Of a stretch of DNA of 64,000 nt, positions 3,163 through 58,678 are shown one piece after another. The stretch is from Minisyncoccota bacterium (GTDB lineage: Bacteria; Patescibacteriota; Minisyncoccia; Phycocordibacterales; SBAW01), in contig DASZWN010000001.1 in assembly GCA_035546575.1 (NCBI GenBank), forward strand, positions 119,254-183,253, read 5' to 3'. The notes beneath the pieces were generated by a model. That model saw only the letters and a list, made by a program, of their open reading frames with translations. It made no database searches and was not told the DNA's origin. Position 1 is the first letter of the stretch. Every line of letters begins with the position of its first letter. Made by a program: the position numbers and the translations under genes.

Positions 3163-3177
3163 ACTGTCTATATATAG

Positions 3178-3228
3178 AGGCGATTGGGGAGCATTTCTTC
3201 TAAAGGAATACTGCCCAATCGCCTTTTT
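3178..3228 (+). terminator. Terminator/attenuator-like hairpin: 11-bp stem (aggcgattggg/cccaatcgcct), 25-nt loop, then TTTTT
   Basis: Perfect 11-bp inverted repeat followed by a T-run on the plus strand. Lies downstream of the His-codon ORF. Confidence 0.45.
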
Positions 3229-3405
3229 CGTTAGGGCGGATCGTTAGCCTGGTCTCTGACAACAAAATAGCAATTAGGAATAAAGCAGAACAATAGTGGC
3301 AAAGCCACAACTGATGTTGTTCCTCGTTGCCGGACTGACTCACCTAGTCGGTACGGTACGAGGGATCGCTTCCGCGATACCCGATAGTTCAACAGGAGAG
3401 AAGTC

Positions 3406-28746: not shown

Positions 28747-29124
28747 ATGGCAACCGAACCAGCAGCAGAAAAGAAGGCAGCTCCTAAGCGCACTCGCAAA
28801 ACAGCCGCTCCGGCTGCAGTGCAGCGCCTTCGCATTAAGGTCCGTGCATACGAGCACAAAGTGCTCGACGCATCGGTAAAGCAGATCATGGAGACAGCGT
28901 TGCGTTACGACGCAAAGATCGCTGGCCCTATCCCGCTTCCGACCGAGATCAAAAAGTATACGGTCAACCGCTCAACCTTCGTCTACAAAGACGCTCGCGA
29001 GCAGTTTGAGATGCGCGTGCACAAGCGCCTCATCGACATCCTCGACCCGTCCCCGAAGGTGATTGAGGCTCTCACGAACCTCTCCCTCCCGTCTGGAGTC
29101 ACTATTGATGTAAAAATGGCGTAG
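28747..29124 (+). CDS. rpsJ: 30S ribosomal protein S10 (with N-terminal extension)
   Basis: [13 protein letters not shown]...GPIPLPT...[18 protein letters not shown]. Confidence 0.9.
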
Positions 29125-29232
29125 CGTAGCTACTGACATTTTTACAAATCAAAAAGAATGGCATTACAGAAAATCCCCGAAAGGGGATTTTCTGTGCTAC
29201 GTTGTAGGCAGGATAGGCAAAGGAGAAGTTCG

Positions 29233-29436
29233 ATGACATCAAAAAAGAGGGGAACGAAATTCGAAGATCAGCGCACGCGGCCTTCGGTACTCGACAAAAA
29301 GATAAGGCAGCCGGCAATTGTCGGCTCCAAACTCCCGAGACCTTCGGTGCGCGGGCGAAAGACTGCCAACAGCACTCTTTCTCCGGGAGGGCAGTTCGAA
29401 CGTCATATCAACTGGGTAAATTCCCACTTCAGGTAA
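29233..29436 (+). CDS. Candidate small basic protein, 67 aa, with an internal RPSV repeat. May instead be part of a structured RNA
   Basis: SD AAAGGAG 7 nt before the ATG. Heavy AGG/AGA codon use, atypical for this genome. Lies inside a highly structured spacer. Confidence 0.25.
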   Translation: MTSKKRGTKFEDQRTRPSVLDKKIRQPAIVGSKLPRPSVRGRKTANSTLSPGGQFERHINWVNSHFR

Positions 29437-29448
29437 TCCCTGAACTTC

Positions 29449-29480
29449 CTAAGCCTCGGCATTTGTCCCGAGGCTAATTT
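29449..29480 (+). terminator. Intrinsic terminator (gcctcgg-catttgtc-ccgaggc + TAATTTTTT)
   Basis: 7-bp stem plus T-run. Confidence 0.6.
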
Positions 29481-29772
29481 TTTGTAACCTTTTTGTTTCT
29501 ACTCAGTTTTTATAAGTGGATAGAGTAGTCTGACAGTGGAGGCCTGTGAGGGGAAACCCTCGGACGCTCACATACGAGCTCACACATTCCTTTTGAGCCT
29601 CTGTATTTTTTACACGCTCTCCCACTCCATCTTCGTTCTTTCTTCCCCCACCCGCCTCATCATTTTTGATGAGGCATATTTCTTGCTACACTCAGGTTGT
29701 CCGGTGCCAGAAGGTATTGAGGAGGGGCGCAAGCTCTGAATCAGAGCTCTGGCAAACGACGGCCGTAACTAT

Positions 29773-29820
29773 AACGGCCCTAGGGGGTGGAGGCGTCAAA
29801 ACCTCCACCCCTGCCTTTTT
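29773..29820 (+). terminator. Terminator-like hairpin (ggggtggagg/cctccacccc 10-bp stem, then TGCCTTTTTC)
   Basis: Perfect 10-bp stem followed by a T-run, inside the rpsJ-rplC spacer. Confidence 0.5.
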
Positions 29821-29927
29821 CTTGCATAATTTTAAACCTTAGGTTATAGTCTTCTGGACTCTCGACCCGCGCCCTTGGCGGGGTAAACATAGGGTTGTCC
29901 ACGTCCCCTCGGGGACCAATAGAAACC

Positions 29928-30551
29928 ATGAAATTCATCCTTGGAACAAAGGGCAAAATGACGACTGTATACACCGAAGAGGGTCAGGCCTTTGCCGCGA
30001 CCGTTATTACTGCTACTCCGGGTGTAGTTACACAGATCAAAACAGCCGAGAAGGAGGGTTACAACGCCGTCCAGATCGGTGGTATCGACGGCAACGTAAA
30101 GCACACCAACAAAGCGCAGCGGGGCCACGCAAAGGGCAAATTCTTTAAGCATTTCCGTGAGCTTCGCGCACGCGACGGCAAACTGCCGGAGGGTGTCGAG
30201 GTAGGTGCCACAATCGACCTTTCTGCGTTTGCAGTTGGCGACAAGGTGCAAGTGTCTGCAATCTCAAAGGGCAAAGGCTTTGCCGGCGTTGTTAAGCGCT
30301 ACAACTTTAAGGGCGGTCCACGTTCCCATGGCCAGAAGCACAGCGAGCGTGCACCGGGTTCTATCGGCGGCTCTGGCGGTCGCGCAGGCGGTCGCGTTGC
30401 TAAGGGTATGCGCATGGCAGGCCGCATGGGCCAAGACCGCGTAACCGTGCGCAACCTCGCAATACTCCAGGTGCTTCCAGAGACAAACGAGCTCGTTATT
30501 GCAGGTGCAATCCCGGGCCGCGCAGGTACGCTTGTTGAGATACGCGGCTAG
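29928..30551 (+). CDS. rplC: 50S ribosomal protein L3
   Basis: MKFILGTKGKMTTVYTEEG...; start chosen at the conserved N-terminus rather than the longer ORF-track start at 29895. Confidence 0.9.
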   Translation: MKFILGTKGKMTTVYTEEGQAFAATVITATPGVVTQIKTAEKEGYNAVQIGGIDGNVKHTNKAQRGHAKGKFFKHFRELRARDGKLPEGVEVGATIDLSAFAVGDKVQVSAISKGKGFAGVVKRYNFKGGPRSHGQKHSERAPGSIGGSGGRAGGRVAKGMRMAGRMGQDRVTVRNLAILQVLPETNELVIAGAIPGRAGTLVEIRG

Positions 30552-30556
30552 ATAAT

Positions 30557-31354
30557 TTGAATACCACTATGGAAACTACTATCTACAACAAACAAGGCAA
30601 AGAATCAGGAAAGATCACGCTTCCTGAAAACATTTTTGGCCTGCCGTGGAATGCAGACCTGGTACACCTGGTTGTAACTGCAATGCGCGCAAATGCTCGC
30701 GGCAATGTCGCACACACCAAAGACCGCGGCGAGGTTCGCGGAGGCGGGCGCAAGCCATGGGCCCAAAAAGGGACTGGCCGCGCTCGCCATGGCTCAAGCC
30801 GCTCACCAATCTGGAAGGGCGGCGGTGTGACCCACGGTCCTCGCAACGAGAAGATCTTTGGCCTCAAGGCAAACCGTCAGGCTCGCCAGAAGGCGCTTTT
30901 GGTTGCGCTCTCTCGCAAATTTAAAGACGGCGAGGTGCTCTTTATCGACTCGCTCGAGATGGAGACACCTAAGACAGCAGCAGCAAAGGTGATGCTCTCA
31001 GCGCTCGGTAAAAACTTCTCCGGTCTCAGCAAAACCAAGAATGCAGCACTCATTGCTATCCCTGCTGCTCACGCTGCAACACAAAAGAGCTTCCAGAACT
31101 TTGGCAATATCGAGGTGGCCGAGGTGCGTAATCTCAACCCGCTGTCGGTGCTCTCGAGCAAATACGTTATCTTTGCAAACCCAGAGGCTGCATTTGAGAC
31201 GCTTAGTGCCAAGAAGGTTGTAAAAAGCACTACGGGCGAAAAGAAGGTTAAGAAGGCAAAGGTGGTGGCCGAGGAAGCAGCGCCTGCACCAAAGGCAGTT
31301 AAAAAGGCACCGGCCAAAAAGGCAATAAAAAAGGTAGCTGCACCGGCAAAATAA
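30557..31354 (+). CDS. rplD: 50S ribosomal protein L4 (with Lys/Ala-rich C-terminal extension)
   Basis: L4 family core. C-terminal KKAKVVAEEAAPAPKAVKK tail. Confidence 0.9.
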   Translation: MNTTMETTIYNKQGKESGKITLPENIFGLPWNADLVHLVVTAMRANARGNVAHTKDRGEVRGGGRKPWAQKGTGRARHGSSRSPIWKGGGVTHGPRNEKIFGLKANRQARQKALLVALSRKFKDGEVLFIDSLEMETPKTAAAKVMLSALGKNFSGLSKTKNAALIAIPAAHAATQKSFQNFGNIEVAEVRNLNPLSVLSSKYVIFANPEAAFETLSAKKVVKSTTGEKKVKKAKVVAEEAAPAPKAVKKAPAKKAIKKVAAPAK

Positions 31355-32523: not shown

Positions 32524-32531
32524 GTAGGCAA

Positions 32532-32551
32532 CCTGCCTGCCGGCAGGCAGG
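32532..32551. repeat. Palindromic element copy 4, a perfect 20-bp palindrome cctgcctgccggcaggcagg, intergenic just after rplB
   Basis: Perfect palindrome sharing its core with 1252, 2472 and 14472. Confidence 0.75.
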
Positions 32552-32582
32552 GCGCGGAGCCCAGCAGTAACTATAAAAAAGA

Positions 32583-32609
32583 GAAAAGGCGCCGAAGGGG
32601 CGCCTTTTG
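32583..32609. terminator. Bidirectional terminator (AAAAGGCGCC-gaagg-GGCGCCTTTT)
   Basis: A-run, 7-bp GC stem, T-run. Member of a three-copy terminator family with 38583 and 39133. Confidence 0.7.
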
Positions 32610-32634
32610 CAATAGCGGGGAAGCAGGCCTTAGC

Positions 32635-32829
32635 TTACTTCATCTGGATCTGCGGAACGGATACAAGCCTCGCGCGTGGCGAAGATTGCTGCTGTTGCGG
32701 AGTGACGTCGCGCCGAATTTGGTCGTCGGCGCAACCCGGGACACAATACAGGAAAGGTCCTCGTCTGGTGGGTTTGCCAAGAATTTGGCGAGTGCAGGTT
32801 GAGTTGTGACAAAACAACCTATGCGTCAT
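32635..32829 (-). CDS. Hypothetical small Cys-containing protein, 64 aa
   Basis: ORF track. CHNSTC and CVPGC motifs. Terminator on its 3' side. Weak call. Confidence 0.25.
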   Translation of the reverse strand: MTHRLFCHNSTCTRQILGKPTRRGPFLYCVPGCADDQIRRDVTPQQQQSSPRARLVSVPQIQMK

Positions 32830-33016
32830 TTCAGAATTCCTTCTGCTGCATCTGAAAACAAGATGAACTCTCAGCCTTTTCCCACCATACTCTCATATAT
32901 TTTATTTGGCAAGAATTTTCCGGTGCATAACGTAGAAATATTTTATTGGATCGCGCGTTGAAACTTGAAGGAAAATTAGTTACTCTTTGCAACAGATACG
33001 ATAGGAGAAACAATCC

Positions 33017-33238
33017 ATGTTCTACTTTTTTGCATTAGCGCTGGCTGCAGCCGCACTTCTTGTAATAGGCTATCTGTCGCGGGTTGCGACCGTGTTCGAG
33101 AAGATGGTTCAATATGAACGCAGTTGCGGCCGGAAGACTCACTGGGCACTCATTCTCCTTTATAGTCTTGTCCTAGTTGGGCTCATGTATGAAGGAGCTG
33201 ATATACGCATACCGCAGGTTAATCCTGCGAAGAAGTAA
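33017..33238 (+). CDS. Hypothetical small membrane protein, 73 aa
   Basis: Two TM helices. AT-rich upstream region. Terminator hairpin at 33245-33275. Confidence 0.35.
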   Translation: MFYFFALALAAAALLVIGYLSRVATVFEKMVQYERSCGRKTHWALILLYSLVLVGLMYEGADIRIPQVNPAKK

Positions 33239-33284
33239 AACGACGCCCCGGCAAAGTGCCGGGGTGATTTTCGCTCAGCCCTCA

Positions 33285-33524
33285 TTAATTGCGAGGGAGT
33301 TTTTTCTTCGGGACAATCTTGACCGCCTCCTCAAGCACTCCTCTGAATTGCTTCCTCGTGATACCTGGGCCGCCAGATTGCATTCGCCGCTGTAGAGGTG
33401 TCATATCCTTTTCGTCCACCACCTCCGGGTGTTTCTTCTTGTGGGCGAAGAACTCATCTGCGATCTTCTTTGCCACAGGCGATAGGGCGCCCTTAACCAC
33501 TCGCCGATCCCTTGCTTTCTTCAT
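33285..33524 (-). CDS. Hypothetical small basic protein, 79 aa
   Basis: Perfect SD GGAGGtacccc before the ATG at 33524. Confidence 0.5.
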   Translation of the reverse strand: MKKARDRRVVKGALSPVAKKIADEFFAHKKKHPEVVDEKDMTPLQRRMQSGGPGITRKQFRGVLEEAVKIVPKKKLPRN

Positions 33525-33641
33525 GGGGTACCTCCGTTTTGTTCAACTAAAGCCGAATATAGCACAATATTGACTCTTTTAATTTTTTCCAGCACCATTG
33601 CGCCAGCTTAGTTCGCCAAAACGTTCAACCAGGAGGACTCA

Positions 33642-34616
33642 ATGTCGAAGACAGACCAAATACGGCCGATGGTTATCGACTTGCCGCTCAAGTATCGCGG
33701 CAAAACGCGCGACACATATGAGGCCAAGTGGCCTGACCCAAACGACAAGCGCCGGCCGCCGCTCTTGATCGTGGCAAGCGACCGTATCTCGACGCATGAC
33801 GTCGTGCACAAGAGCATGATCCCAAAGAAGGGCGAGGTGCTCAATGCGCTAACGATCTTCTGGATCGTCGACGTGCTCGAGAAGCTCGGTATTGCTCACC
33901 ATCTCATTGCCTACGGCAAGAAGATCTATGATTACGTGCCGAAGCCGGACAGCGACCCCAAGGACGTACCGCTCCACCACCGAGCAATCGTAGTGAAGCA
34001 ACTCGATATAATTCTGGTCGAGTTTATCCTCCGGCAATTTCTGTGTGGGGGCTTGTGGAGCAAGCATTACAGTAAGGGTCTGGACCCTTACGGGCTCAGT
34101 ATCCCCGCAGGTCTTCCGCTCATGACGAACTTTGGCACGTTGGCAAAGTTTGCTGCACCCGTCTTCACTCCGACCAAGAAATCGGATGAAGAACATGATC
34201 CGCCGCTACTGAGCGAGGCGACTGCTCGGGAACATCCGGAGGCTCTTATGCTCAGCCGAAAAGTGTTCGATCGCGGCAGGCAACGTCTCCGTACGAGGGG
34301 AATCGAGCTCATCGACTCCAAGTTCGAGTTTGGGATCGACGAAGATGGTCAGGTGGTGCTCGCCGATGAGGTTCTCACGCCTGACTCAAGCCGCTTCGCA
34401 CTGCTCAGCGACATCAAGGAGGGGGAGAACCCGCCTTGGCTCGATAAGCAGATCGCTCGCGATTGGGCGGAAAAGCATTGGGGGCTTAACCCCAAAGAGC
34501 CTCTGGTATTTCCACCTCTTACGATCAGCGGCATCCGCAATACCTACGTCGATCTATTCGAGCAGATCGTCGGCATGAAGCTCAGTCAGTTCCAGCACGA
34601 ACGGCTCGACAACTAG
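33642..34616 (+). CDS. purC: Phosphoribosylaminoimidazole-succinocarboxamide (SAICAR) synthase
   Basis: YRGKTRDTYE, LLIVASDRISTHDVV, DSKFEFG, DEVLTPDSSRF motifs. SD GGAGG. Confidence 0.85.
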   Translation: MSKTDQIRPMVIDLPLKYRGKTRDTYEAKWPDPNDKRRPPLLIVASDRISTHDVVHKSMIPKKGEVLNALTIFWIVDVLEKLGIAHHLIAYGKKIYDYVPKPDSDPKDVPLHHRAIVVKQLDIILVEFILRQFLCGGLWSKHYSKGLDPYGLSIPAGLPLMTNFGTLAKFAAPVFTPTKKSDEEHDPPLLSEATAREHPEALMLSRKVFDRGRQRLRTRGIELIDSKFEFGIDEDGQVVLADEVLTPDSSRFALLSDIKEGENPPWLDKQIARDWAEKHWGLNPKEPLVFPPLTISGIRNTYVDLFEQIVGMKLSQFQHERLDN

Positions 34617-34632
34617 AGTTCCCAAGCAAACG

Positions 34633-34664
34633 CCCCGGCCGTTTACGGCCGGGGTTCTCTTTTT
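34633..34664 (+). terminator. Intrinsic terminator after purC (ccccggccg-ttta-cggccgggg + T-run)
   Basis: 9-bp stem. Confidence 0.7.
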
Positions 34665-34673
34665 GCCCTAAAT

Positions 34674-34702
34674 TTGACTCTTTTGGGCTTATCCTGTAGT
34701 AT
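34674..34702 (+). promoter_or_regulatory. Promoter TTGACT-17-TAGTAT upstream of rpsS
   Basis: Near-consensus -35 and -10 with a 17-nt spacer. Shares TTGACTCTTTT with the tuf and purC upstream regions. Confidence 0.6.
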
Positions 34703-34772
34703 CTCCTTACTTCCGTGCCGCAAGGTTTGAGCGCTCTCTGCTTAAACGGGCAGGGAATTTAATTTTGGAAAT

Positions 34773-58269: not shown

Positions 58270-58308
58270 AGAAAGAAAACGCCCGAAAGGGCGTTTTCTT
58301 TATATCTG

Positions 58309-58678
58309 TGGAAGTGGAGAGATTTGAACTCTCGTGCAATATAAGATAGAACGCAGGTCTACAAGAGATAGACTATCTTATTTTCTTAGACTCAGTTGTA
58401 AGAGATAGACAGAATAAAACTGAGCTGCAGATCCTTTTTCTTGATTAGCAGCGAATCACTTTGCCAACCACAGCCCGATATATAACACCCTATCTCCCTA
58501 CTCAGACACTCGGGAGGGGATGGACCTTAGGCTCGCGCAGTGGCGAGAGAAAGATCATTCACCGAGAAATACGGTGAGCTAACTGATTTTGCAGTTATGG
58601 TTTGGAGCTTTTAAAGCAGATCTCCACTGCTCCCTTGCGTGTGAACTATTGATTACATTGTCTAAGCCTGTCACTCCC
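58309..58678 (-). ncRNA. ssrA: tmRNA (SsrA), about 370 nt, encoded without a CCA end
   Basis: Minus-strand RNA begins GGGAGUGACAGGCUUAGACAAUG... (compare the GGNUUCGACA consensus). It ends ...GAGAGUUCAAAUCUCUC-CACUUCC-A, with a T-arm and a 7-bp acceptor stem containing the G3-U70 wobble typical of Ala identity. Resume codon GCA near nt 87. Adjacent to smpB. Confidence 0.7.

Follow-up and report, generated by a model that had tools for sequence, protein, structure and literature searches.

Terminator-delimited modules between rpsJ and rplC in a Minisyncoccota genome, with a probable 23S rRNA mimic and a conserved rplC leader

Cis-regulatory RNAs can imitate ribosomal RNA (rRNA), as in the leaders for L1, L10, L20 and S15 and in the '23S-methyl' motif that precedes genes for rRNA methyltransferases. 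To our knowledge, such mimicry is known only as short motifs in the leaders of r-protein or rRNA-enzyme genes, and we know of no r-protein that has helices H68-H69 of 23S rRNA as its primary binding site. Other macromolecular surfaces are imitated by decoy or sponge RNAs such as 6S RNA, which resembles an open promoter, and CsrB, which offers multiple CsrA sites. H69 is the hub of intersubunit bridge B2a and of contacts to tRNA, RRF and release factors. The H68-H69 surface carries the nucleotides of bridges B2a, B2b and B7a, together with those that RluD, RlmH and RlmG target in E. coli. No r-protein feedback element is known from CPR bacteria. The S10 leader of E. coli is bound by L4, and in Archaeoglobi a candidate L4 r-leader precedes rplC-rplD-rplW-rplB (Eckert & Weinberg 2020, PMC7247131). 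Ribosomal RNA encoded in pieces occurs in organelles (PMC3382252).

The window analysed here is a stretch of 64,000 nt from an uncultured, Candidatus Adlerbacteria-like bacterium of the Minisyncoccota, in which rpsJ and rplC are separated by 803 nt (29125-29927; Table 1). An earlier note on this DNA had described the spacer as about 800 bp long and highly structured, and the gene boundaries and the fold bear this out (-300.6 kcal/mol vs -240.0 +/- 7.9 for shuffles; z = -7.7). All the hairpins it named are present, with offsets of 0-9 nt; a GAAA-capped stem given as 12 bp has 13 bp, the CCTTCGG direct repeats are found at 29276-29302 and 29336-29362 (70% identical), and a T-run follows each of the two terminators, T2 and T4, to which a third on the + strand, T3, can be added. 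The interpretation that it offered, of structured non-coding RNAs or an autoregulatory r-protein leader inserted into the operon, is partly supported. Discrete structured RNAs ending in intrinsic terminators do occur, and the leader reading survives for the last 76 nt, a conserved and covarying rplC leader. It is not, however, a single inserted element: the spacer is a series of five independent, terminator-delimited modules (A-E) in a lineage-specific insertion hotspot. Nor did an S10/L4-type leader emerge, the element being downstream of rpsJ and matching no r-leader family in Rfam searches.

Table 1. Features in and around the rpsJ-rplC spacer (positions in the window)
Feature	Position	Strand	Basis or remark
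rpsJ (ribosomal protein S10, N-terminal extension)	28747..29124	+	ORF; Pfam Ribosomal_S10 on identical gene in L001
Hairpin across rpsJ stop codon (TGTAAAAATG ... CATTTTTACA)	29109..29146	+	Inverted repeat, 10 nt, 100% complementary
Module A, 13-bp GAAA-capped hairpin, rpsJ terminator	29166..29195	+	Inverted repeat
Module B, genome-unique	29196..29451	+	67-aa ORF (29233-29436) and two CCTTCGG repeats
Intrinsic terminator T2 (AGCCTCGG/CCGAGGCT plus AATTTTTTG)	29452..29484 (hairpin 29452-29475)	+	
Module C, conserved small-RNA candidate	29484..29686	+	Includes CU-rich tract
Module C motif GTAACC-N16-GTT	29484-29508	+	Putative ECF-sigma-like promoter
Module C structured 5' domain, including GAAA hairpin	~29531-29612	+	
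Hairpin GAGGG-GAAA-CCCUC	~29548-29561		
Terminator T3, end of module C	29654-29675	+	
Direct repeat TTTCTTGC flanking module D	left 29679..29686, right 29818-29825	+	Single copy in L003
Module D, 139-nt insertion relative to L003 and L009	29687..29825	+	Alignments
23S look-alike (E. coli ~1830-1930: H67 remnant, shortened H68, H69)	29694..29786	+	
Palindrome AGCTCTGA/TCAGAGCT	29732-29748		
Hairpin GGCCGU/ACGGCC (H69 of look-alike)	29761-29779		
Intrinsic terminator T4 (GGGGTGGAGG/CCTCCACCCC plus TGCCTTTTTCTT)	29783..29822 (hairpin 29783-29812)	+	
rplC operon promoter TTGCAT-N17-TATAGT	29822..29850	+	Same hexamers and spacing 5' of rplC clade-wide
Module E, conserved structured rplC leader, 76 nt	29855..29930	+	Model R2, 58.1 bits
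Module E P1, CUCU/AGGG		+	Extra inserted hairpin at 29866-29884
Module E P2, GGUU with AACC	29893-29896 with 29924-29927	+	Directly 5' of AUG
Module E P3, hairpin GUCCC(CUCG)GGGAC	29903-29916	+	CUCG cap
rplC (ribosomal protein L3), then rplD, rplW, rplB	29928..30551	+	ATG at 29928

That S10 and L3 normally abut, as the earlier note assumed, fails in this lineage, where the gap between rpsJ and rplC ranges from 13 to ~2750 nt among ~70 relatives. Its cargo is unrelated between genomes and includes PaaX/Cas2-like, MazF/PemK, DUF1761, CAAX protease, AI-2E transporter and integrase-repeat proteins. Throughout the Adlerbacteria clade rpsJ has a terminator of its own, and the segment between this terminator and the rplC promoter varies from genome to genome. 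The modular homology of the spacer is apparent from alignments with the relatives L003, L009 and L083, and the modules have accumulated in an Adlerbacteria-specific hotspot bounded by the rpsJ terminator and the dedicated rplC promoter. Since the identical locus is present in a Logan assembly and a diverged orthologue in an ENA assembly, the arrangement is authentic and not an assembly artefact. A decayed copy of a gene found in relatives was considered and rejected, tblastn with all the spacer ORFs of the relatives yielding only DNA-level homology to L003.

The flank of the hairpin spanning the rpsJ stop codon is conserved (29127-29177 in L009, 29137-29165 in L115), and L003 and L009 have, as counterpart of module A, a hairpin that is followed by a T-run and forms a canonical terminator. 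Module B and its CCUUCGG repeats are unique to this genome, have no DNA match in relatives and lack comparative support. The 67-aa basic ORF within it could be a real small-protein gene cassette with its own terminator, having a good Shine-Dalgarno sequence (AAGGAG) 7 nt 5' of its ATG and ending only 16 nt before a strong terminator. Against this, it has no homologue among 5.8 billion proteins, no Pfam family and no DNA conservation in relatives. Its codon usage, which the earlier note had called atypical, is not of the coding type, scoring -0.12 per codon vs 0.35 +/- 0.20 for true-gene windows and lower than 99% of them. A protein-coding cassette is improbable on this evidence, and module B is probably non-coding or an orphan.

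Module C is 81% identical to its counterpart in L083, 75% to that in L003 and 68% to that in L009. Of the 33 pairs that RNAalifold predicts, two in T3 and one in the 5' domain covary, those in T3 being compensatory across relatives. The GTAACC-N16-GTT motif occurs once per locus and at the same position in seven loci. Module C is probably a CU-rich small RNA in its own right, with a putative ECF-sigma-like promoter. T2, T3 and T4 each consist of a GC-rich hairpin followed by a U tract, all on the + strand.

At the other end of the spacer, rplC-rplD-rplW-rplB have their own promoter and a conserved leader of 55-100 nt in the Adlerbacteria clade. Model R2 matched 36 loci of the clade, always directly 5' of rplC. 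Over sets of 31-36 sequences, 93-94% of cells are paired and 9-10 pairs have changed on both sides; with all 36 the values are 93.7% and 10 of 15 pairs, and controls with slid pairing collapse to 31-51% paired. One pair is AU in 24 sequences and GC in 12, and is never unpaired. In P2, the 4-7 nt that immediately precede the AUG pair with a conserved core further upstream; the helix joins GUUG(A)UC to GA-CAAC and ends at -1 of the AUG, and GUCG/CGAC and GGUU/AACC variants covary. Module E thus combines a 5' UTR position and a covarying structure with overlap of the translation-initiation region and, because it is found with covariation in 36 loci of the clade, it is a new r-protein leader candidate. 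Through it, one of the operon's r-proteins may exert feedback on translation, candidates being L4 by precedent and L3 by proximity. No Rfam family matches module E. When six leaders were aligned locally to E. coli 23S rRNA they scored no better than shuffles, so that imitation of rRNA, a common but not obligatory trait of such leaders, has no support at the level of sequence. As the leader has no detectable 23S similarity, the naming of its ligand is a guess. It is a testable candidate for an r-protein feedback element in CPR bacteria.

The remaining module, D, contains a look-alike of 23S rRNA. The palindrome and the GGCCGU/ACGGCC hairpin, which the earlier note had listed separately, form together with their flanks a counterpart of H67-H69. 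Rfam searches returned LSU_rRNA_bacteria (RF02541) at 29694-29804, with 58.8 bits vs a gathering score of 50, and no other rRNA match in the 64-kb window. The match covers model positions 1856-2001 only, a fraction of the ~2.9-kb, six-domain LSU rRNA, and skips H70/H71, which are absent, while H67 is reduced to a remnant of 4 bp. It appears in the 20-kb and 64-kb submissions and is lost with ~1 kb or short loci; we treat this loss as an effect of the tool, homology being confirmed independently by blastn (E. coli rrlH 1834-1930, E = 1e-13) and by our own model R1 (99.6 bits). The look-alike is a two-helix domain of ~90 nt with ~75% identity to E. coli, and alone it folds into the rRNA architecture (z = -4.6). 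The insert that carries it occupies a slot filled in L083, the closest relative, and L084, and empty in L003 and L009. Despite the 8-bp direct repeat on its flanks, a transposon or MITE was rejected, the insert ends TACACTCAGG... and ...CCCCTGCCTT not being inverted repeats. As the TTTCTTGC repeat is made up of a terminator tail and a -35 box, promoter duplication explains it equally well.

The insert of L083 is 267 nt long, and module D is equivalent to its 3' half; L083 has an intact small RNA gene here, of which module D is an orthologue truncated at the 5' end. The L083 gene is made up of look-alikes of 23S H42-44 (the GAC), of 23S H67-H69 and, more weakly, of the 16S 690 loop. Its GAC-like piece aligns with E. 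coli 1054-1105, except that the closing stem has been re-paired and the 1095 loop replaced, and the 690-loop-like piece matches at 19 of 22 positions, a level reached by 1 of 300 shuffles. The window retains only the H67-H69 look-alike and the terminator, and has no recognisable -10 box of the kind found in L083. The two mimics are 80% identical with 17 differences, 10 of them in paired columns, where four double compensatory and two wobble changes occur and none is disruptive; base pairs have thus been preserved by compensatory change. The rRNA-identical loops and the basal internal loop of H68 are invariant between the copies. The two copies are unlike each other at positions where the true 23S genes sampled do not vary, and the U-A pair at the base of H68 and the CUCUGG 3' strand of the window are absent from the 26 true genes.

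Similar stand-alone H68-H69 mimics with terminators are found at L100 and L103, unrelated loci on two other metagenome contigs, adjoining pyrimidine-synthesis and glycosyltransferase genes; that at L103 has only a mini-H68, to which its own closing stem has been added. All four independent sequences fold alone into a base stem, an H68-like hairpin and the H69 hairpin, run from U1834/G1835 to ~A1927, and have a terminator within ~5-45 nt. Across these four members 95% of the pair counts are paired and seven pairs have changed on both sides, although with so few members the statistics are thin and rest mainly on the one orthologous pair of the window and L083. A resemblance of the 5' domain of L100 to 16S h43, suggestive by eye in its conserved loop and flanks and its re-paired stem, was rejected as not significant against shuffles. 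Relatives of L100 have no mimic, and synteny around it is not conserved.

The family is sporadic. Model R1 found the mimic in the window and L083 alone among 92 Paceibacterota sources, Rfam searches of 20 plus 12 relatives found it in none beyond these two, and eight further loci, obtained from five more L3 homologues (80-82% identity), showed no rRNA-like DNA. When metagenomes were scanned for H69 with CCTAG directly after it, most matches were true 23S genes containing long-read errors, and only L093, L100 and L103 were informative. A viral scan with the H69 15-mer gave 59 matches, about the chance expectation, a handful of them with extended H69-like context.

These observations suggest that module D is a functional RNA rather than a dead rRNA fragment, and probably a structurally selected rRNA mimic and candidate decoy. 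It may act in trans, presenting its H68-H69 surface to a partner that normally recognises this surface on the 50S subunit. Candidates are factors for rRNA modification or assembly, factors for ribosome splitting or recycling, and the 30S subunit; nothing in the neighbourhood of the mimic points to a binding partner. Literature searches turned up no earlier small RNA that imitates H69 or an rRNA domain. In the window the L083-type -10 box has been lost, and the RNA would probably be made only when transcription passes the weak terminator of module C. For the joint reading, a stack of independent modules in a hotspot, with an rplC promoter and leader and with module D a functional mimic or decoy, we estimate a probability of about 0.55. 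More tentatively, and with doubt prevailing, Paceibacterota (CPR) may encode a class of stand-alone, terminator-ended small RNAs that are mosaics of look-alikes of ribosomal centres and serve as decoys in trans, the window holding a truncated member. The H68-H69 core would be constant in such a class and fused by lineage to the GAC (H42-44), 16S 690-loop look-alikes or other domains. A promoter can be proposed for two of the four members, and possible targets include assembly, modification or splitting factors, ribosome-targeting toxins or antibiotics, and the partner subunit.

A neutral origin would give module D its resemblance by descent only, as a pseudogene formed when a piece of a 23S gene or cDNA was captured at a double-strand break. 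The location is hypervariable and the region plainly accumulates junk, the distribution of the mimic is sporadic, and the window copy has no -10 box. The unrelated locus L093 carries a 150-nt 23S-like piece with other boundaries and a degenerate H68 5' strand, and the way L083 combines 16S-like with 23S-like pieces could be the product of template switching. A pseudogene, however, would not be expected to keep pairing at all 10 helix substitutions, four of them double changes, or to let its stems drift while its loops remain rRNA-identical. Shared limits and a terminator in four independent occurrences also argue against it, and neither L103, with its mini-H68 and added stem, nor the GAC-like part of L083, re-paired and with a replaced loop, is a raw copy. 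We therefore consider a pseudogene unlikely, though it is the alternative to be taken most seriously. Gene conversion from a divergent resident 23S gene could in principle also have shaped the mimic.

The mimic has a terminator behind it and sits ~140 nt 5' of rplC, and imitation of rRNA is the classic logic of r-protein leaders (PMC7247131), which would fit a cis autoregulatory element through which an r-protein, for example L2, controls read-through into rplC. The mimic is, however, upstream of the conserved rplC promoter and outside the 5' UTR; as this promoter and a strong terminator cut it off from rplC, it is not an operon leader. The promoter and leader are intact in relatives that have no mimic, and the L100 and L103 copies stand beside genes of other functions. 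H68-H69 is also not known to be the primary site of any protein of the operon, and a cis element is quite improbable. Still harder to credit is a separately encoded segment of 23S rRNA that assembles in trans. The look-alike is a self-contained structural unit with rRNA-identical functional loops, and fragmented rRNA genes do exist in organelles (PMC3382252). Such a segment should be present throughout the lineage, but the mimic is absent from the locus in close relatives (85% and 78% L3 identity), and in all from L003, L009 and 88 other sources. H70/H71 are missing, H67 is vestigial, and the copies differ where true 23S genes do not.

If the reading of module D as a functional mimic is true, an entire interface domain of the 50S subunit, with H69, is copied by an RNA that stands alone. 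The cell would thereby have a new means of titrating or misleading a factor that binds ribosomes, and this in organisms with ribosomes that are unusual already. Independently of this, terminators, promoters and cargo interrupt the S10 operon in this clade, although the operon is universally conserved, which matters for operon-based annotation and for the extraction of phylogenomic markers from metagenome-assembled CPR genomes.

Among known systems, module E is closest to the r-protein leaders, being a conserved, covarying 5' UTR structure directly 5' of rplC-rplD-rplW-rplB that is predicted to occlude nucleotides beside the start codon. Unlike the S10 leader of E. coli it is downstream of rpsJ, and unlike known r-protein leaders it is limited to the Adlerbacteria clade and has neither an Rfam match nor detected rRNA similarity. 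Module D shares with rRNA-mimic leaders the sequence and secondary structure of an rRNA site, invariant loops included. It departs from them in copying a whole two-helix domain of ~90 nt instead of a minimal motif, in having its own terminator and a place outside the 5' UTR of any gene, and in the fusion of its L083 version to look-alikes of other rRNA sites. With orphan or fragmented rRNA pieces it has in common a short, true 23S homology away from an rRNA operon, but it is accessory, absent in close relatives and terminator-ended, and unlike rRNA fragments it has diverged, through compensatory changes, at positions that do not vary in real 23S genes. The proposed logic is that of 6S RNA and CsrB, in that a stand-alone, terminator-ended RNA would offer a copy of a natural binding surface; unlike theirs, this surface is ribosomal, its distribution sporadic rather than clade-wide, and its partner a postulate.

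The most remarkable component of the spacer between rpsJ (S10) and rplC (L3) is a look-alike of part of 23S rRNA, which the earlier note did not recognise as such. It lies in module D, one of the modules (A to E) into which the 803-nt spacer divides. The Rfam bacterial LSU rRNA model scores 58.8 bits at 29694-29804 (gathering score 50; E = 7e-15 in a search of the whole window), over model positions 1856-2001, equivalent to E. coli ~1830-1975. The match comprises a 4-bp remnant of H67, H68 in shortened form and all of H69, passing over H70/H71, and blastn to E. coli rrlH gives 75% identity across 1834-1930 (E = 1e-13). For the region 29000-30100, as for the closest relative (L083) and the metagenomic contig L100, the LSU match was reported only within stretches of at least 20 kb and nothing was returned from submissions of 1-4 kb; an Rfam search of a short locus that finds nothing is therefore unreliable for rRNA fragments.

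Set against the related loci L003 and L009, module D shows up as 139 inserted nt that separate the module C terminator from the rplC -35 box, with the direct repeat TTTCTTGC on either side. Exactly the same slot in L083 holds a 267-nt insert, the 3' half of which is orthologous to the window's insert. Its 5' half includes a likeness of the GTPase-associated centre (23S 1054-1105, H42-44) with the closing stem re-paired and the 1095 loop replaced, and a 22-nt stretch of the insert agrees with the 16S 690 loop (E. coli 690-711) in 19 of its 22 positions; one of 300 shuffles scored as well. With these two likenesses the L083 RNA is a mosaic of 16S-like and 23S-like pieces. The L083 insert carries promoter-like hexamers (TTGCGT-N16-TAGACT), and the window has lost the -10 box together with the 5' half. 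In L084 the slot has a different occupant, barely H69-like, with its own terminator.

Four mimics (window, L083, L100 and L103) each fold alone into one shared architecture of a 3-bp base stem, an internal loop, an H68-like hairpin and a directly abutting H69 hairpin, and a terminator hairpin follows ~5-45 nt later in all four. Fold z-scores are -4.6 in the window and -4.2 in L083, and weaker in L100 (-1.7) and L103 (-1.9). The window and L083 mimics are 80% identical; ten of their 17 differences lie in paired columns, where six pairs are touched, four by double compensatory changes (U-A/C-G, A-U/G-C and, twice, G-C/A-U) and two by wobble-compatible ones, and no pair is disrupted. No change is seen in the H69 loop or in the basal internal loop of H68, both of which are the same as in E. 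coli. An alignment of the four mimics with E. coli has 95% of its cells paired, and changes on both sides occur in 7 of the 23 pairs. At the base of H68 the window has a U-A pair (ACGACG), and its 3' strand reads CUCUGG; neither feature occurs in any of 26 true 23S genes from the same scans. From the 92% identity of their L3 proteins we infer that the window and L083 organisms are unlikely to differ at such positions in their real 23S rRNAs.

R1, our own model of the look-alike, was run on 92 Paceibacterota sources, the remainder of the window among them, and found the mimic in the window and L083 only. A metagenome scan added two stand-alone mimics: that of L100, from another Paceibacterota lineage, lies beside pyrF- and pyrE-like genes, with a good promoter (TTGGAA-N17-TATACT) ~80 nt upstream, and that of L103, next to a glycosyltransferase gene, combines a mini-H68 with an 8-bp closing stem of its own. 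The mimic is absent from the relatives of L100. It is therefore sporadic and without a tie to r-protein genes.

Other rRNA-like sequences were also seen. The 5' domain of the L100 RNA (3166-3243) resembles 16S helix 43 by eye (GCUAGUA ... AUCAG.AUG ... GAAUAC, stem re-paired), but shuffled sequences score as well when simply aligned. An unrelated bacterial contig, L093, has an intergenic 150-nt 23S-like piece (1415-1564; H68 3' strand to H71; Rfam LSU 73 bits) beside a large BTAD/TPR regulator, so H69-centred rRNA fragments recur outside CPR bacteria. A few viral (IMG/VR) contigs have H69-like hairpins with extended rRNA-like flanks; the hairpin of L138 has tRNA-like sequence before it and a terminator after it, and tRNA-like sequence was judged by eye to lie nearby in L126 and L165. 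The 59 viral matches to an H69 15-mer are mostly at chance level.

Features of the spacer and of comparison contigs (window coordinates unless a contig is named)
Feature	Position	Remark
rpsJ	28747-29124	gene upstream of spacer
Module A	29109-29195	hairpin across rpsJ stop codon, and GAAA hairpin
GAAA hairpin	29166-29195	13 bp
Module B	29196-29484	window genome only; terminator T2 at its end
CCTTCGG direct repeats	29276-29302 and 29336-29362	
Terminator-like sites	29452-29475, 29654-29675, 29783-29812	+ strand
Module C	29484-29686	68-81% identity in L003, L009, L083
GAGGG-GAAA-CCCUC hairpin	near 29548-29561	
Palindrome AGCTCTGA/TCAGAGCT	29732-29748	
GGCCGU/ACGGCC stem	29761-29779	
rplC promoter	29822-29850	module E
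rplC leader	29855-29930	module E
CUCG-capped stem	29903-29916	
rplC	29928-30551	gene downstream of spacer
GTPase-associated-centre look-alike and 16S 690-loop-like stretch	L083 448-584	intact module D orthologue
Viral H69-like hairpin	L138 13942-14016	
Viral H69-like hairpin	L126 929-964	also L165, L180
Viral H69-like hairpin	L123 186-251	also L141, L156, L168
Viral H69-like hairpin	L133 876-958	also L170, L158

The spacer is highly structured, as the earlier note had held: all the hairpins that it listed were found, with coordinates shifted by at most 9 nt, there are three terminator-like sites, and the folding energy is -300.6 kcal/mol against -240.0 +/- 7.9 in dinucleotide shuffles (z = -7.7). 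The modular anatomy was derived from alignments to L083, L003, L084 and L009, whose L3 proteins are 92, 85, 84 and 78% identical to that of the window. The homologue of the module A GAAA hairpin in L003 and L009 is a canonical terminator. The 67-aa ORF of module B has no homologue and no Pfam match, 99% of 67-codon windows from the window's true genes exceed it in codon score (-0.12 per codon), and it is probably non-coding. Module C, a small-RNA candidate, has a structured 5' domain containing a GAAA hairpin already noticed earlier (GAGGG/CCCUC in the window, GAUGG/CCAUC in relatives), a CU-rich tract of varying length and a terminator with two covarying pairs (UC/GA to GU/AC). The motif at its 5' edge, G[TA]AACC-N16-GTT, is present in seven loci, with a single copy in each, and presumably resembles ECF-sigma promoters.

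Clade-wide (Adlerbacteria), rplC is preceded by TTGCAT-N16/17-TATAGT or TATATT and then by a 55-100-nt leader. Three helices of the leader are supported by an alignment of 31 sequences, from which our model R2 was built; R2 matches the leader in 36 loci, every time on the + strand and directly 5' of rplC, and finds none in the more distant loci L033-L082. Across the 36 aligned sequences 93.7% of cells are paired, falling to 31-51% in slid controls; 10 of 15 pairs change on both sides, and one is AU in 24 and GC in 12 without exception. In helix P2, GUUG(A)UC pairs with GA-CAAC, which ends at -1 relative to the AUG, and the pairing is kept in the variants GUCG/CGAC (L031, L032) and GGUU/AACC (window, L014, L017, L084). 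An extra structured segment of ~75-100 nt separates leader and start codon in L009 (2923-3000; CAUAGCGGG...CGAUAUAA...) and, at equivalent positions, in L021, L117 and L015, so the leader is not invariably adjacent to the AUG. Module E has the look of an r-protein translational feedback leader. The closest precedent comes from Archaeoglobi, in which rplC is preceded by a candidate L4 leader (PMC7247131). No sequence similarity to E. coli 23S rRNA was found in the leader, and L4 or L3 as its ligand is therefore a guess. The earlier proposal, one or two structured RNAs or an autoregulatory leader inserted into the S10 operon, is partly borne out: both kinds of element are present, but the spacer is a mosaic rather than one inserted element and the leader is confined to its last 76 nt.

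The closest L3 proteins are from metagenome-assembled genomes that carry the labels Candidatus Adlerbacteria, Paceibacterota or Patescibacteria. An identical locus occurs in an independent Logan assembly, so the spacer is no assembly artefact. Across ~70 related loci the rpsJ-rplC gap varies from 13 to ~2750 nt, and the longer gaps hold mutually unrelated cargo (PaaX/Cas2-like, MazF/PemK-like, DUF1761, CAAX-protease, AI-2E-transporter and integrase-repeat proteins); the junction is therefore a hypervariable insertion hotspot of the lineage. The statement that rpsJ and rplC normally abut applies only to more distant Paceibacterota (such as L041, L048, L062 and L072). The PaaX/Cas2-like protein is encoded in L007, L015, L018 and L027, and the MazF/PemK-like toxin gene in L045, L061, L071 and, on the minus strand, L012. 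The rplB-rpsS junction of the same cluster is interrupted by ~2.2 kb (32524-34772) containing two short ORFs (one of 73 aa, membrane-like, and one of 79 aa on the minus strand), a bidirectional terminator (33244-33266) and a 324-aa ORF (33642-34616) that is purC/SAICAR-synthetase-like by eye only; there are thus at least two breaks in the S10 operon. The N terminus of S10 is extended by ~24 Ala/Lys-rich residues (28747-28820), and L4 ends in a Lys/Ala-rich tail of ~60 aa (31150-31354), both absent from typical bacterial orthologues. A tmRNA gene lies at 58306-58678 on the minus strand (Rfam 81.4 bits, also ARAGORN; tag peptide AKSVSSPYFSVNDLSLATARA).

The best-supported reading of module D is that it belongs, in truncated form, to a family of small RNAs restricted to the lineage, which imitates ribosomal functional centres and whose structure is maintained by selection. 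Its weightiest competitor is a neutral rRNA pseudogene fragment, which would suit the sporadic distribution, the position in a hotspot and the L093 fragment, but the pattern of compensatory change and the boundaries common to the mimics argue against neutrality. Less weight falls on a cis-regulatory mimic for the rplC operon, given that a terminator and a promoter intervene before rplC and that the L100 and L103 mimics have other gene contexts, and least on a split 23S rRNA into which the piece would assemble in trans, since close relatives do not have it.

Literature searches found no description of a stand-alone H69 or rRNA-domain mimic RNA. As to how the small RNA of module D might work, we infer tentatively, with a probability of roughly one in three, that it would act in trans as a decoy, displaying the H68-H69 surface to the usual partner of that surface, either a factor or the 30S subunit. 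In the E. coli ribosome this surface contains the nucleotides of bridges B2a, B2b and B7a and the target sites of RlmG (G1835) and of RluD/RlmH (1911, 1915, 1917).
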